Assembly (NCBI GenBank): GCA_046563655.1
Contig: CM102286.1
Span: 8,990,001-9,054,000, forward strand
DNA from: Yuukianura sp. NJ FZ-2021
Taxonomy: Eukaryota
Direction: 5' to 3'
Length of the DNA: 64,000 nt
Both the position numbers and the translations under genes were made by a program. The stretch's first letter is position 1, and each line of letters opens with the position of its first letter. A model generated the notes under the pieces. That model did no database searches and was not told the DNA's origin. It was given only the letters and a program-made list of their open reading frames with translations. Shown one piece after another: positions 26,901 through 32,900 of the stretch.

Positions 26901-29900
26901 GAAATTGGATAGAGCCTGTGTACAGTGTTATGTTGAAAGTTCTACCCCCAAACTTGGTCCCTTTCTGTGTCTACTGGAGTAGACATCAATTGCAAAATCT
27001 TCCACTCCGAAAAATGCTACTGCATGTCTAGTCGGATAGACACTGCAACAAAAACACAATACTTTCTCTAGAACTCTCTGTGTCTATTATTTTAGACAGT
27101 CCATTAGAAAAAGAAAAAAAAAACACCTGACATGAGATTCGAACACACCGCCTAGTCCTTTGTAACTTTAATCATTGACCACACTAACCACTTGACCACA
27201 CCCTTGTTTTTAGTAAACTTATGTGAAATTCGAACTATTTCATAACCCATGTAGCATTATGATATATAGAATATTTCGACTCCCTTCCTAAAATCGATCA
27301 ATCAGTGGTAGTGTTGAGCAGTGCTTCTGTTTCTTGTGCGTTTTTGTTCATTTCCAGCATCAGCGAAGCCAGACTTTTCTTTAAATTTTGCTTTTCGAGA
27401 TGGTACTGCTTAGTGCCAGGCTCAGCTCCATACTGTCGAATAGTGTAATCTAAATACAAAAATATTCGTCTAAGCAAAACACTTAATCCGTTAAGGAATA
27501 GCTTTAAAATATAAATATCTACAAGAAATGTGTAAAACCGGTTACCAATCAATGCATCTCTCTTCCTCGGATCAATTGACGGAAGTTTTTCTGTTTTGTT
27601 AGCAGCACATCCTTTACCCATCAAAGAGTAGCCAACAACTTCATGACAGTCAAATAGCTTTTTGAATAAGCATCTTCCAAAGATGTTTGTGCTGCCGGAT
27701 GTTGCTTTAACTGTGAGCAAGAATTCCTTTTTCAGCATTACTCCATTTCCAATGTCCGTTTCGTCATTGTGATTTTGCTGAGATTTTAGCTCAGCATTTT
27801 CAGCTTCCAACAACAGAATTTGTTCTATAATTAATAAAAAGACATAACTAACATCAAATGTAGAACCACAACGCATGACACGAAACGTTAACTAAAAGTC
27901 TATTTACTCACCCTCAAGATTTTTAATTCGATTTGTGCTTGTCTCCAGCTTGGATTCCAGTAGTGCAATTTTCTCGTTACTTTCGTTGTTTGCAACTGGA
28001 TCGTCCAAAACTTTTCCCAGTTTTGTGCTTCGCTGAAGTAAATCCTTTTCCTTACAATAAACGTAACATCATTAAAACTTATTTGTGAAAAAAATAGAAA
28101 CCCTAAAATAATGCAAGATTTAAGTGAAACAGGTTACATCGCGTGTTGTAAGTCTTCGCTTCTTTGGTGCTGCCTTCGTTTTGATTTGAAGTGTCGTCGC
28201 TGTTCCATTAGAAATTTTTTCTTCCAGCGCAGATTTTTTGCCTACAACATAACAACGAAAATAAAATGTTTAATTATATTCTGCGGATTTTATAAATACA
28301 GTACTTACCAATTGCAACTACAAGGCCGATGCAGACTTTTTTCTTCCATTTAAAGCCAACTTCAATGTTCAGCAGTTCGGAAGTAGGACGAGCTCTGTCT
28401 GAATCCTTTGCAATATCACCAGCTTGCATGACTGAAAAGCGTACTGGTGATTCATGGATCCACTGCACTAATAAGTATTCGTTGTCCATCTTGATTTCAG
28501 TTAGAATACTTACACAAATCTCACTGGAAAAATTACACTTTAACTTCAGGTTTCAAATTACTTCATGAGAGAACAAAGAAATCCCCCCAAAATTTCAAAA
28601 CTCGAATTTAGTTTCAGTCTCTAGATAAAGTGAAAACTTGAGATAACTTGAAAATTGTGGGAGAATTAGGATTTTGAACTCAGAACTTCAACTTATAACA
28701 GTGTTTAAAGTTCAGTAAGCGTTAATCACTAGTTAATCAACAATGTCCAGTCAAAGAAAGAAGTTTCTTCTCGAAAACGATGTTAAAATTCCCAAAACTA
28801 CAAAATACCGAGCAAGAGTAAGTCAAAAACAAACAAATTATGTAATGACCAATATTGTATTACAGTGAAAACGATTAAAACTGAATTTTTAACATTATTT
28901 CCTCTTTCCACCAGAAACGATTGTTTCACGGAAGCCCAGTTGCAGATAGTATGAGCAGCAGTAACTACAATTTTACTTCTGCGCATTCCACTTCGACCGT
29001 AAGTACAAAAAGTGATGAGTGGTATCGTTCCTCAAAATTATGTTTTGTGCGTAATTTTTGGTAAATTTTTAGGATTCGATAACCGAAAGAACCACTAGAA
29101 TTCGTGAAAATGACACGCCGATAAACGAAAGCCAAGTTACGAATACAGTTAATGATGATGCGCTTTACCCAAATTCAAAACTCACAAAGGCAGAAGCGGA
29201 TTTGCTGATTCTGGGATTTATTGCAAAAAATCAACTGTCAAATTCCAAATCAGCCAAACTATTGAACTTAATCAACTTATTTTTGCCAAAGGACATCACC
29301 ATTTCCTCAAAATTGCAACATTTAAAAAAGAAAATACCACAGGAACACGGATTGACAACTACGTATTTTTACTGCCCGAACTGCGAAGAAGAGTTAAATA
29401 GCCACACAGACAATGTTCACCAATGCTCAAACTGCAATTCCAAATTCCAAGAAACGAAACTTTTAAAAGATGGCAACTACTTCTTGTATTTCGACATAAA
29501 GACTCAAATCGAATGTCTTTTAAGTAAGACGGAAGTAGCGAAAGTAGTTTTTGAGAACTTGGAGCGTCGAAACGAATCACACAGTCTCCCATCATACTCA
29601 CACATCATGGATGGAGATATGTACAAGAAATTGAAGCTAACCGGACATGACATTTCTTGTATTTTTAACACAGACGGAGTGCCACTTTTTAAATCATCTA
29701 AATTCTCAATTTGGCCAATTCTACTTGCTCTTATTGAAGTTGACTATGCAACACGCCGGAAGCACATAATCCCTGCAGCATTGTGGTTCGGATCTCATAA
29801 ACCAAATTTCGACACTTTTTTTGGACCATTTATTCGTATCGCAAAATTACTGGGTTCGGAAAACTATGTACGATGGAATTTCCAAAACACAGCAATTAGG

Positions 29901-32900
29901 AGCAGAGTGTATTTTCCGATTTGTGTTGCCGACTCACCAGCTCGCTGCCAATGCCAAGGAACTAAGCAGTTTAATGGCGAATATGGATGCAGTTGGTGCT
30001 TGACCCAAGGTCAAAGTTACACTTCAGATGATGGACGTTTCAAGAAATGGGTTTATCCAGCTTCCGGTTGCAATATTTTGAGAACAAAAGAAAACTTCAT
30101 GGAACAGTTAAGGGAACTACGGAAGAAAATTGATGCAAAGGAGAACGTAACCTCAGTTTATGGTATAAAAAAAGCCTCTCAACTAATTTTGCTTCCAAAA
30201 TTCAACATCGTCAGCGGTTTTGTTTTCGATGCCATGCACGGAATGTATCTCGGAGTCGCCAGAGCATTTTTGAATTTTTGGTTAGATTCAAAGTATCATG
30301 CATATGAGTTTTATGTGGGAAACTCCAAGAAAGCTATCAATCAACGATTGAAAACTATTTCGGTTCCGGGAAAGTTTAGCAGGAGAGTAAGAACGTTAGA
30401 CGAAATGAAGTTTTGGAAAGCATCAGAGTGGTCTACATGGATTTCGGTTAGTGCTGTAGTGCTGGAGGGAATTCTTCGGCCAAAGTACTTGAAGCATTTT
30501 GAATTATTTGTGGAATCCGTTTATTTACTCAGCTCTGATAGCATTGAAAAGCTTACAATTGACTCTGCGCATGCGATGTTAGTCAAATTCGTGGATCAAG
30601 TGCCAGTAATTTACGGATTGGAGTTTTGTTCTTTTAACTGCCACTCTTTGTCACATGCAGCCTCCTCTGTTCAAAATTGGGGGCCCTTACACCATTATTC
30701 CGCGTTTCAGTTTGAAAACTATAACGGAATTTTGGGAAATTCCTTCAATGGAACAAATCGGGTTTGCAGGGAGATTTCAAATCGGATGAACGAAATGCAC
30801 GCAATTCAAGTATTTGCAAATACTCAGCCGAACTCACCCGCATTGACATATTTTGACTCAATAGTTAATAATACGAAATACAAAACCAACGCCGAAACTG
30901 TCGGGAACGTTTTATTTTTGGGTAATTCTAAAATTAGATTCCTTACAACCGCCCAAAAACAATCGCTACAAAGTGTAGGAATTATAGCCAAAACAGTACA
31001 GTGTTATAGATCATGTTATGTAAACGGCAACAAATACACTACGGAAAAAATCAGTGAACAGAAGCATTGCGATTTTGTTGTAGAAGTTAACGGAGATATC
31101 TTTATTATTAAGGATCTGTTTATAGTTAATTCACTACCAGTGGCATTTGTCAGTAAATTGAATGTTGTTAATTTTAACTCCTCATGTTTAATTTACAAAG
31201 TTTTAAGAACCTCAAAAGATGTAATTCCTCTTAAAATTGATAATTTTATTTCCAAATTTATTGTTAAGCGTGGGTCCAGTGGAATAATAGAAAACATTGT
31301 AAAACTTCCAAATAATTCGCTGTTGATGGATTAAGTAAATACACAAGTTCTGATTCGACACAATGTCGTTCACATTATGTATATATAACTGTTCACAAGC
31401 TGCAGTGTCCACTGTGCAGTGACGAATTCATGTCTAGTGAACCCGCACATAAAGTACACGACACGAATTATGTTGAGATGTTTAGACACAGGTCAGTCGG
31501 GAGGAGCTAGTGTACACTCGCTGTGTCTAGTTTTGAGGAAGTTTTAGGAGAGAGCGTTCATTAGACATGAATTAGGCATAAAATAAAAAGCCGGGAAGCT
31601 CCGCCCCTTTGGATTCATCCATTTCGTCCATTTCTTCCACTGGATATCCAGCCGTGGACGAAATGTCGAAAAAGATATCCACCAACACTGGCTCATTTTA
31701 TTACTGAGGTAAGCCGCACGCGTACTATTATACCGTTTTGTGTGACGATTCAAAGTACAAGGTATTTTAGAAACCCAAATGTAATTTTGTTAAGTTGATA
31801 TCCGGCGCAATAAGTAATTGATTAGCCGAATGAGTAATATGCAAAAGTAATGTTTTCCAATAATTTTATGATAACATATATTTCCATAATAATAATATTT
31901 TAGTTAAACTAATTTGCTTACCTTTCTGTTGGCGTATCTGAAATTGTTTGAGAGGATTCTTCGCTTCCTACAGAGTTGCATTGGTTGGTTCGATTTTGGC
32001 GAGCCGCTTCCCACTCCTCTCTAACGGCAGTTTGAACTCTCTTCTGAAGCTCCCGCACTCTTTGTCGTTCATCCTCCAGCATCTGAACGCCTGAAACGCA
32101 AGATGGCGTTTGGTTAGCTCTTAAATCTGGTTTAGGAATTTTCACTTTTGAAAGCATAGTCGCATGAAAGTACAGTTACCTTGTTCATTCAACAAAAACT
32201 CTCTGTACTTTTCAATTTCACGCAACGTTTCACTAGCTTTAGCCCCAAAAACCCCAAGCTTTGGATCAATGGGAGAATTGGATTTGATCATTTCAATTGT
32301 CATCGCATCATCCGTTGCTACAGACAAGAGAGTAAGAGCTTTCAACTTTTCCTCCAAGTCACAGTTCTTACCCTGCAAAACAAAAAAAAAACGTGTTGCA
32401 TGAAAAAATCGAAAAGAATTTTCTATTCTTCGGGACCTACCATCTCATCCGAATCTGAATTTGAACTGAAAAACGAATTATCCGAAATGGTCAATGTATC
32501 CGTTTTGACTGACTGTTGGCACTAAAAGTCATCAAATGTATAACTCAACTTCGAAATCAAAATTAATTGCATATGACAACATTTTATTTAGACAAACTTA
32601 CTTCTTGAAGGTCGGCTACAAGCGACTGACGTTGGCTTTCCAATTTATGAATTTCTTTTACCGATGACGCTAGTGATGCTCTGTTTTGATTTCGAAGTTG
32701 TTCGAGCTCGATTTGCTTTATCGAAAGTTTTCGTTTTGTTTCTGTAAATAACTTAGTGAGGTCGTCACGCTGAGCTTCTTTGCTTGCCGTTTCTTCCATT
32801 TGTTGAAACTCTGCATCCTCATACACCTATGAAATCAAAAAAATTTGAGAAAAGTTTGACATAAGTTAGCAAAAAACTGAGCAAATCAAAAATCTTCGCT

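Follow-up and report, generated by a model that had tools for sequence, protein, structure and literature searches.

A 64,000-nucleotide (nt) stretch of the Yuukianura sp. NJ FZ-2021 genome (assembly GCA_046563655.1, contig CM102286.1, positions 8,990,001 to 9,054,000 of the forward strand; hereafter the window, numbered from its first letter) carries a transposase gene and, head to head with it, a gene for a protein with a putative BEN domain. The question raised by this locus is whether the two genes make up a single mobile element and, if they do, what the second gene contributes. With a probability of about three in four, positions 26590-31690 represent a structurally intact, low-copy, autonomous transposon of the CACTA/EnSpm-Mirage-Chapaev (CMC) group, encoding a transposase and a partner with a Tudor-like barrel, a coiled coil and a BEN domain, the partner serving in a role like that of TnpA or of the Harbinger Myb protein. 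The parts of the element are listed below (aa, amino acids).

26590-31690, no strand: whole element, about 5.1 kb, delimited by empty-site joints, loose contig ends and the terminal inverted repeat
26590-26601, + strand: left terminal inverted repeat AGTGTTGGTGGA, complementary at 12 of 12 positions to 31678-31689
26590-26897, + strand: left terminal region kept by deletion derivatives, with TGGATATCCA at 26638-26647 and GGACGAAA at 26670
26968-27098, no strand: six left TGTCTA/TAGACA motifs, which pair into three TGTCTA-N6-TAGACA palindromes at spacings of 57 and 56 nt and also register as a direct-repeat family
27298-28489, - strand: partner gene, 284 aa, predicted exons 28489-28309, 28241-28138, 28050-27912, 27824-27546 and 27449-27298 (stop included); putative Tudor-like barrel in exon 1, coiled coil in exons 3-4, putative BEN domain in exons 4-5, divided by intron 4
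28490-28742: spacer of 253 bp between the divergent ATGs of the script-joined frames, presumed promoter region
28743-31334, + strand: transposase gene, 806 aa, predicted exons 28743-28817, 28915-28998 and 29073-31334
31431-31567, no strand: four right TGTCTA/TAGACA motifs, at 31431, 31483, 31524 and 31562
31596-31690, + strand: right terminal region kept by deletion derivatives, with TGGATATCCA at 31641-31650
31678-31689, + strand: right terminal inverted repeat, followed by G at 31690 (...CACTG)

Joining by script the exons proposed in an initial annotation of the window gave exactly the products announced there, namely an open 806-aa frame in three exons on the + strand and an open 284-aa frame in five exons on the - strand, and the distance of 253 bp between the two start codons was likewise confirmed. 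All introns run GT..AG, both transposase donors reading GTAAGT and both acceptors AG. The longest uninterrupted portions are a stop-to-stop open reading frame (ORF) of 753 aa at 29073-31334 (+) and one of 197 aa at 27298-27891 (-). Exon 1 of the transposase finds support in the closest related element (locus L001, see below), which encodes a 25-aa stretch 52% identical to it, and in annotated transposase relatives, which start with a similar basic ...IP(R/K)xT... motif. Intron 4 of the partner gene contains 32 in-frame codons that are missing from spliced full-length relatives, whose C-termini align with exon 5; both observations support the intron. The splicing of both genes and a shared promoter in the spacer are predictions. 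The spacer holds just weak repeats; that of L001 contains a hairpin (2276-2335; 28-nt arms, 89% complementary, 4-nt loop) directly 5' of the transposase ATG. The GC content of the element region (0.35-0.37, versus 0.34-0.46 elsewhere in the window) is unremarkable.

The initial annotation had placed the limits of the element at 26940 and 31552. No inverted repeat is found there, and the ends are placed at 26590 and 31689/31690 instead. They were located with the help of four public DNA runs from two studies (X1 to X4), which hold 77-79% of the sampled words of 26400-32000 and whose contigs were compared with window positions 25500-33000 at a likeness of at least 80%. In contigs from X2, X3 and X4, 26589 is connected to 31766 through 56 other letters, and a 5476-nt contig from X1 covers 25500-26565 and 31700-33000 with 26 letters between, which align by eye to window positions 26566-26589. 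Since the empty-site contigs of all four runs join across the locus, the missing unit extends from 26590 to 31699 at most. Loose contig ends point to the same limits: in X1 to X4 they are heterogeneous before 26590, and after 31674 they share the consensus ...CAACACTG and then diverge, the window equivalent of this consensus ending at 31689/31690. The tips consist of the perfect 12-nt inverted repeat, followed inward by about 100 nt of imperfect inverted similarity. The ends of the element read AGTGTTGG...CCAACACTG, that is, AGTG...CACTG. Base 26589 is a T, still matching the empty-site contigs, and high-copy relatives of the ends have a C at this position; a C before AGTG gives these relatives 5'-CA...TG-3' tips, and the right tip here is ...CACTG. 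The flanks read ...GGCATTT before the element and GGCTCATTTT... after it, with ...CACT(G) followed by G(G)CTCATTTT ATTAC... on the right side. In the high-copy relatives the flank consensus is palindromic-looking (...TTATAAC/C...G/GTTATAA...), so that duplications of 2, 4 or 6 bp fit equally well. Blastn (E ≤ 1e-3) detected neither the element nor its ends a second time in the 64-kb window, and a search of the window for the end motif with up to three mismatches returned the right end itself as the sole match.

The depth of contigs along the locus differs sharply between ends and interior in all four runs.

Flanks: X1 about 73, X2 6.4, X3 100-130, X4 200
Bin 26504-26754 (left end): X1 7119, X2 557, X3 21577, X4 54643
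Bin 31524-31774 (right end): X1 13661, X2 1985, X3 40436, X4 92956
Interior: X1 34-40, X2 8-58, X3 148-231, X4 218

Relative to the flanks, summed contig depth amounts to 87-270x in the left bin, 187-465x in the right bin and about 0.5-1.7x in the interior; not being equal to copy number, it is read as an order of magnitude and corresponds roughly to at least 100 short relatives versus about one full-length copy per haploid genome. Contigs of the short forms join 26648-26888 to 31594-31623, an interval that includes most right joints (for example 26657 to 31596). The best-supported joint, 26888 to 31596, is present in 2-4 contigs per run and has CCGG microhomology on both sides. Rarer joints (27247 to 31523, 27788 to 30895, 30950 to 31119, 31247 to 31499) correspond to graded internal deletions, and in X1 the depth falls stepwise from the left end (7119, 548, 163, 77, 34). 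Depth and joints together are the usual picture of an autonomous element with miniature derivatives.

A far greater abundance of 26590-26897 and 31596-31690 than of the interior would also be seen if the pair were a chance association, either a host BEN gene lying beside a transposase or a two-gene block nested in an unrelated short high-copy element, and the CCGG on both sides of the 26888/31596 joint could be read as the duplication of such a nested insertion. Nesting is unlikely because the deletions are graded and the depth in X1 declines by steps instead of in a single jump; the joints 27247 to 31523 and 27788 to 30895 tie the interior to the ends, and the inner boundaries carry no inverted repeat. 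The gene pair is, moreover, kept in all five close relatives that could be tested. On these grounds both forms of the chance reading were rejected, the probability left to them being minimal. The preferred reading is that of the initial annotation, a structurally intact two-gene DNA transposon, which is borne out by the open genes, the ends in terminal inverted repeats, the absence of the unit from empty-site contigs, the derivatives and the retention of the pair in one clade. The BEN gene likewise proved to be a component of the element and not a neighbor: it lies inside a unit bounded by inverted repeats that is missing from the empty-site contigs, and it accompanies the transposase in the five close relatives.

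These relatives come from a transposase-based scan of metagenome contigs of the Joint Genome Institute (JGI), which returned 80 loci; in 43 of them, 2300 nt or more of sequence precede the transposase match. The partner was searched for at the 80 loci by tblastn with the spliced protein and by applying a hidden Markov model (HMM) of the partner family, profile A1, to six-frame ORFs, and the results were tabulated against upstream length. All five loci whose transposase is at least 36% identical and whose upstream sequence reaches 2300 nt (L001, 54%; L003, 44%; L002, 37%; L069, 37%; L016, 36%) have a BEN-like ORF upstream on the opposite strand, with E values from 2e-42 to 9e-19. In L001, the partner has the same exon plan as in the window, its exons 1, 4 and 5 being 64%, 71% and 62% identical to their counterparts, and the ATG-to-ATG spacer measures 267 bp versus 253 bp. 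A BEN-like ORF lies about 7 kb upstream in L032 and L033 (4e-8 and 3e-10), another is found in L007 (35% identity, 1867 nt upstream) at 4e-5, and weak matches (5e-4 to 2e-3) occur in L056, L024, L011 and L019; among the 43 loci with 2300 nt or more of upstream sequence, 32 gave no BEN-like ORF at E ≤ 0.01. Two contaminant-type contigs in prokaryote bins also carry BEN-like ORFs, 2.4 kb upstream on the opposite strand in L082 (E = 1.6e-7) and 5.8 kb upstream in L081 (E = 1.2e-6). The related loci with the gene pair are on short, separate metagenome contigs from different samples.

In a maximum-likelihood tree of 81 transposase rows, a single clade (SH-aLRT 99) comprises the window, L001, L003, L002, L069, L016 and L032/L033/L034, the upstream DNA of L034 being too short to test for the partner; L007, L006, L068 and L011 form the sister group. 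This tree, made quickly, rooted at the midpoint and including some short rows, shows clustering and not the order of events. Between the window and L001, the proportion of nonsynonymous differences (pN) is 0.19-0.20 in partner exons 1, 4 and 5, versus 0.29 in the compared transposase segment; synonymous sites are saturated (pS 0.81-0.94). Judged by these values, both genes have been under purifying selection, and the partner exons are constrained no less than the transposase. Transposase copies without a BEN gene, the contrary case considered in the initial annotation, were not found among the testable members of the close clade and occur farther out only, in L006 and at the 32 of 43 loci mentioned above.

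At a greater distance, nine loci forming a monophyletic clade (support 100; L028, L036, L037, L041, L044, L048, L049, L050 and L057) carry ORFs of an unrelated 400-540-aa family in the same upstream, opposite-strand slot, for example at L037:378-1994 (-). This family, which gave no Pfam match and no usable match in the Atlas, is a second candidate partner gene. Since this clade has another gene in the same place, the head-to-head two-gene layout seems general in these animal-type elements, the gene in the slot differing by clade. Dimerization domains of the hAT family are found near two of the related elements, at L001:60-494 (+) and at L078:12183-14138 (-), the latter with a zf-BED domain; these are other transposons.

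The 753-aa exon of the transposase, whose numbering is used here, has 94 relatives at E ≤ 0.001; the top one reaches E = 1.4e-173 with 50% identity, and the best named one is a Folsomia candida protein (43% identity). None was found among viral contigs. By a count from the table of precomputed matches, 66 of the 94 carry Transposase_21 (PF02992). D201, D287, C306xxC309, H524xxxH528 and E548 are invariant in an alignment of 13 sequences (A2) and intact in the window, and the invariant columns of this alignment also include a CxxC...CxxC module upstream of the catalytic core (C101, C104, C118, C121). Nine of the 13 members of A2 match PF02992 and 11 match DUF1258, which we take to be the Mirage family of C. 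elegans. The order D, D, C(2)C, H(3)H, E is the one given for the CMC/CMCT group (EnSpm/CACTA-Mirage-Chapaev-Transib) in the available part of PMC12730594. By these motifs and by homology, and not by a Pfam model, the enzyme is filed under the CMC group as a whole and not under one of its lineages, the 81-row tree holding no reference Chapaev, Mirage or EnSpm sequences. The designation "EnSpm-like" in the initial annotation is therefore kept in the broad sense of CMC membership, by motif order and homology, and dropped in the strict sense of CACTA, the tips not being CACTA...TAGTG and no 3-bp duplication being visible.

The partner has 46 relatives at E ≤ 1e-3 in an exhaustive phmmer search. 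The BEN model PF10523 is matched by 25 of them at E ≤ 0.01, 7 of the 46 scoring above the curated gathering cut-off. Profile A1, built from 18 members, matches solved BEN structures (Insv 4ix7, E = 1.4e-4; Bsg25A 4x0g, 1.4e-3; BEND6 7yul, 1.7e-3), and the nearest Atlas cluster of the partner is 77% BEN (score 0.90, 186 shared features), which serves as a lead only. An AlphaFold model (pLDDT, the predicted local distance difference test score, 83.8) retrieved BEN chains at Foldseek ranks 1-12, with probabilities up to 0.99 but weak E values (see below). The BEN assignment made in the initial annotation thus stands as homology to PF10523-matching relatives and to solved BEN chains and falls as a direct Pfam match on the window's exons; the C-terminal domain appears to be a divergent BEN domain, held only indirectly.

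Full-length relatives of the partner measure 300-320 aa and follow the same plan of N-terminal module, coiled coil and BEN domain. The N-terminal module of about 60 aa is conserved, with near-invariant residues W10, S19, V20, D28, R32, P35, V44 and W48. Pfam found no family in exon 1, even at E ≤ 10. The first 60 aa were modeled with a pLDDT of 91.4; the best Foldseek rows for this model are the KDM4A Tudor domain, at E 0.3-0.9, and ranks 1-10 obtained with VIA are all Tudor domains, with ARID4B and KDM4A/B at Z 6.3-7.0 and root-mean-square deviations of 1.7-2.6 over 49-56 residues, although by the tool's own note a Z under 8 may reflect a common arrangement. The model suggests that the module is a Tudor-like barrel, and the predicted coiled coil suggests a dimer. 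Named relatives of the partner are "BEN domain-containing proteins" (UniRef) of the springtails Allacma fusca, Orchesella dallaii, O. cincta and Folsomia candida, plus one Priapulus protein. The springtail relatives are multi-copy, several members of more than 90% identity being found on contigs of different lengths within a genome; in Folsomia candida, members of one 90% cluster lie on contigs of five different lengths. One Logan member of the family is present on 62 contigs of up to 5135 nt; no relative of the BEN exon was found among genome contigs. Because the springtail entries have all three parts of the architecture and occur in multiple copies, they probably represent genes of transposons and not host regulators.

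The TGTCTA/TAGACA motifs to which the initial annotation had drawn attention are real and clustered, 10 of their 38 occurrences in the window falling inside the element. Another candidate is TGGATATCCA, a 10-bp palindrome that occurs twice in the window (26638 and 31641), each time in an end region of the element, 40-50 nt from the tip; GGACGAAA motifs are also present in the end regions. In short derivatives, as judged from the loose-end consensus, TGGATATCCA is kept next to the tip, and the three TGTCTA-N6-TAGACA sites, which lie further inward on the left, are lost in the commonest derivatives. For this reason TGGATATCCA is ranked above TGTCTA as the putative site required for mobility; the TGTCTA array would better fit a regulatory role. 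The related loci L001, L003, L016, L069 and L007 yielded no terminal inverted repeats, and the sole candidate in L002 is a perfect inverted pair of 14 nt at 127/5463 that lacks a duplication.

A number of observations weigh against the reading of 26590-31690 as an intact two-component CMC element. At the ends, the empty-site contigs differ by about 4-9% from the window flanks and may represent a diverged haplotype or a paralogous locus. For instance, X1 record 1 shows 52 other letters and 51 gaps over 671 nt of flank, with many small indels; the differences of the run contigs across 25500-26170 and 31700-33000 point to haplotypes that have diverged strongly or to a paralogous copy. No contig bridging flank and element is present among the listed contigs of X1 to X4, so the filled state is seen in the window only; in favor of the reading, contigs spanning both genes were recovered (X4 record 22, 27730-30686, 2 differences; X1 record 5, 27747-29696, 0 differences). 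The left tip is without the C that high-copy relatives have at 26589, and the flanks of this one copy show no clean target-site duplication and no 3-bp repeat abutting both tips. The longest exact direct repeat, CATTT (26585-26589 and 31694-31698), abuts the left tip and is 3-4 nt off the right tip. The ends may reflect a duplication of 3-5 bp together with the gain or loss of a few bases at the tips, a longer but imperfect duplication (GGC..ATTT) or a damaged left tip. Damage of this kind may have left the copy immobile though still a source of protein. In run X2, the middle of the transposase gene (29436-30950) has a depth of 58, versus 8-10 over the partner gene (about 6x); it follows from this excess that some partial transposase copies lack the partner. 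L006 speaks against strict linkage of the two genes: its transposase DNA matches that of L007 at 88% identity, but the sequence upstream of it is unrelated and has no BEN-like ORF. The related loci do not share the TGTCTA and TGGATATCCA motifs and have no non-coding similarity to the ends or the spacer of the window element; unshared end motifs would be expected if every family has its own sites. As to the proteins, Pfam searches were run on unspliced exon pieces of the partner, whose BEN domain is split by intron 4, and exon 4, exon 5 and exons 4+5 read through intron 4 gave no match to any family, BEN (PF10523) included, even at E ≤ 10. The BEN chains retrieved by Foldseek have E values of 0.08-0.6 (none at or below 0.001) and template-modeling scores of 0.26-0.37 when normalized by the query, a match weakened by the 32 intron-encoded residues that the model includes. 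The Transposase_21 check suggested in the initial annotation turned out negative, PF02992 giving no match to the 753-aa exon at E ≤ 1 and its gathering score not being reached; the only Pfam match of the window transposase is DUF1258 (E = 1.5e-5), at 25.1 bits below the cut-off of 33.1. Finally, the role ascribed to the partner comes from analogy and conservation only.

The state of the left tip and the lack of an evident duplication, together with an interior at about 0.5-1.7x flank depth, would agree with an immobile or domesticated gene pair in which only the relatives of the short derivatives were ever mobile. We consider this quite improbable. Contigs from two studies lack the unit but otherwise match the locus. 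Its ends have the same sequences as the ends of the high-copy derivatives, and graded deletions connect its interior with these ends. Relatives of the gene pair lie on separate metagenome contigs and are multi-copy in springtails, which is not the pattern of a single conserved host locus.

If the locus is an autonomous two-component element, as we prefer, the transposase would supply catalysis and the partner would play a part like that of TnpA or the Harbinger Myb protein, a proposal made by analogy. BEN domains are described as sequence-specific DNA binders in the available part of PMC11601247. The partner would dimerize through its coiled coil and bind the palindromic end repeats, TGGATATCCA and/or TGTCTA-N6-TAGACA, of which it is the likeliest predicted reader; it could then help the transposase to find or pair the ends, or regulate the element. 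Both proteins would also mobilize the short derivatives in trans. A different view, less probable but deserving attention, is that the partner is conserved cargo with no part in end recognition, serving the element either by repressing transposition or, as a chromatin factor, by protecting it from host silencing or steering its integration. BEN proteins are best known as sequence-specific binders acting in repression and insulation (PMC11601247, in its available part, for the binding; the rest is general background), and the confidently modeled N-terminal module most resembles the histone-reading Tudor domains of KDM4A/B and ARID4B, even though the tool's own note counts a Z of about 7, as in these Tudor matches, as middling. 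The transposase has a CxxC...CxxC module of its own that could bind the ends, and the unrelated gene found in the slot in distant clades indicates that the slot is not tied to one biochemical function. Palindromes are nevertheless placed where a dimeric binder would be expected, both TGGATATCCA copies lying 40-50 nt from the tips and the three TGTCTA-N6-TAGACA sites on the left.

Two-component cut-and-paste transposons are few and well studied, En/Spm and Harbinger being the examples. En/Spm (CACTA) of maize combines the TnpD transposase with TnpA. Like it, the present element has a transposase of that superfamily, as judged from motif order and homology to Tnp2/Transposase_21 proteins; it also encodes a second protein and carries arrays of short subterminal repeats internal to its inverted repeats. 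It differs in that its two products come from separate divergent genes, whereas those of En/Spm arise by alternative splicing of one transcript; in that the putative Tudor-like/coiled-coil/BEN partner has no detected similarity to TnpA; and in its ends (AGTG...CACTG versus CACTA...TAGTG, with no 3-bp duplication seen), its length of 5.1 kb and its animal host. PIF/Harbinger elements, which according to the available part of PMC12730594 encode a transposase and a Myb/SANT DNA-binding partner, are likewise two-gene cut-and-paste elements in which a DNA-binding-type second gene stays with the transposase over long divergence. Their transposase, however, belongs to an unrelated superfamily, the DNA-binding fold is another one, and the TA/TWA-type duplication that they make is not seen here.

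Within the CMC group, the Chapaev/Mirage enzymes have aspartate-aspartate-glutamate (DDE) catalytic residues with C(2)C and H(3-4)H motifs, a likeness to which the weak DUF1258 match adds. Invariable CAC/GTG tips and a 3-4 bp duplication, neither of which is evident in the present copy, are given for Chapaev in the accessible parts of PMC4079192 and PMC12730594, which mention no partner gene. Tips of the form 5'-CA..TG-3' are given for the CMC/CMCT group in that of PMC12730594, and duplications of 2-5 bp are the criterion applied here to the group; the right end of the present element finishes ...TG, as in such termini. The fungal CMCT and KDZ transposons that carry TET/JBP dioxygenase genes (PMC12730594, available part) share with it the broad transposase group and an extra chromatin- or DNA-related gene as stable cargo, but this cargo is an enzyme and the hosts are fungi, as opposed to a DNA-binding-type protein and animals here. 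BEN-solo factors (Insensitive, Elba/Bsg25A, BEND6, BANP, NACC1) provide the best profile and fold matches of the partner's C-terminal domain, and several of their solved entries are, by their titles, complexes with target DNA. They differ from the partner in being host regulators that are not transposon-borne; the partner's putative BEN domain is divergent, below the Pfam cut-off in most relatives, and is preceded by a family-conserved Tudor-like barrel.

Full-text searches of the literature yielded no paper that describes a CMC, EnSpm or CACTA element with a BEN gene; Repbase and subscription journals were outside the scope of these searches, and a prior description there is possible. It is conceivable, if on the doubtful side, that an animal CMC clade, represented by the window, by soil- and freshwater-type metagenomes and by springtails, depends on the Tudor-like/coiled-coil/BEN protein as a subunit for end recognition or chromatin targeting. 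If so, this would be a third independent two-component solution after TnpA and the Harbinger Myb protein, many arthropod "BEN domain-containing proteins" would be transposon genes, and transposons would form a reservoir for host BEN regulators. The viral context of the BEN domain is already known; with a BEN-type partner, the two-component systems would gain a new DNA-binding fold and the BEN domain a mobile-element context. The copy described here offers a compact testable system, with intact genes, defined inverted-repeat ends, two kinds of palindrome and short derivatives as possible substrates.

Some further features of the element and its surroundings may be noted. The segment 27128-27212 (-), 3' of the partner stop, resembles box A plus box B of a tRNA and contains GTTCGAATC. 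ARAGORN and Rfam recognize no tRNA there, and the fold is no better than that of shuffled sequences (z = -0.34); the segment may derive from a tRNA and have decayed since. Depth in the bin 27006-27256 is 2-5x that of the transposase region in the four runs. The sole Rfam match in the element, snoZ159 (E = 0.44), is far below the gathering score and was taken as chance.

The nearest relatives of both element genes are from springtails. The element sits between the 3' ends of two convergent genes, a terpene-synthase-like gene (to 25750, +) and a coiled-coil gene (from 31918, -). On the left, two adjoining ORFs occupy 24681-25750 (+), the second of which (25112-25747) matches Terpene_syn_C_2 (PF19086) at E = 3.6e-7, above the cut-off; PF19086 is a microbial-type terpene synthase domain, present here in an apparently animal genome. 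No relative of this ORF was found in a search restricted to longer proteins. Elsewhere in the window, 11386-14147 and 59354-62253 form a dispersed duplication of about 87-91% identity, with an 831-nt core (12827-13646 versus 60327-61145) and an EF-hand ORF in each copy (12915-13607 and 60474-61106).

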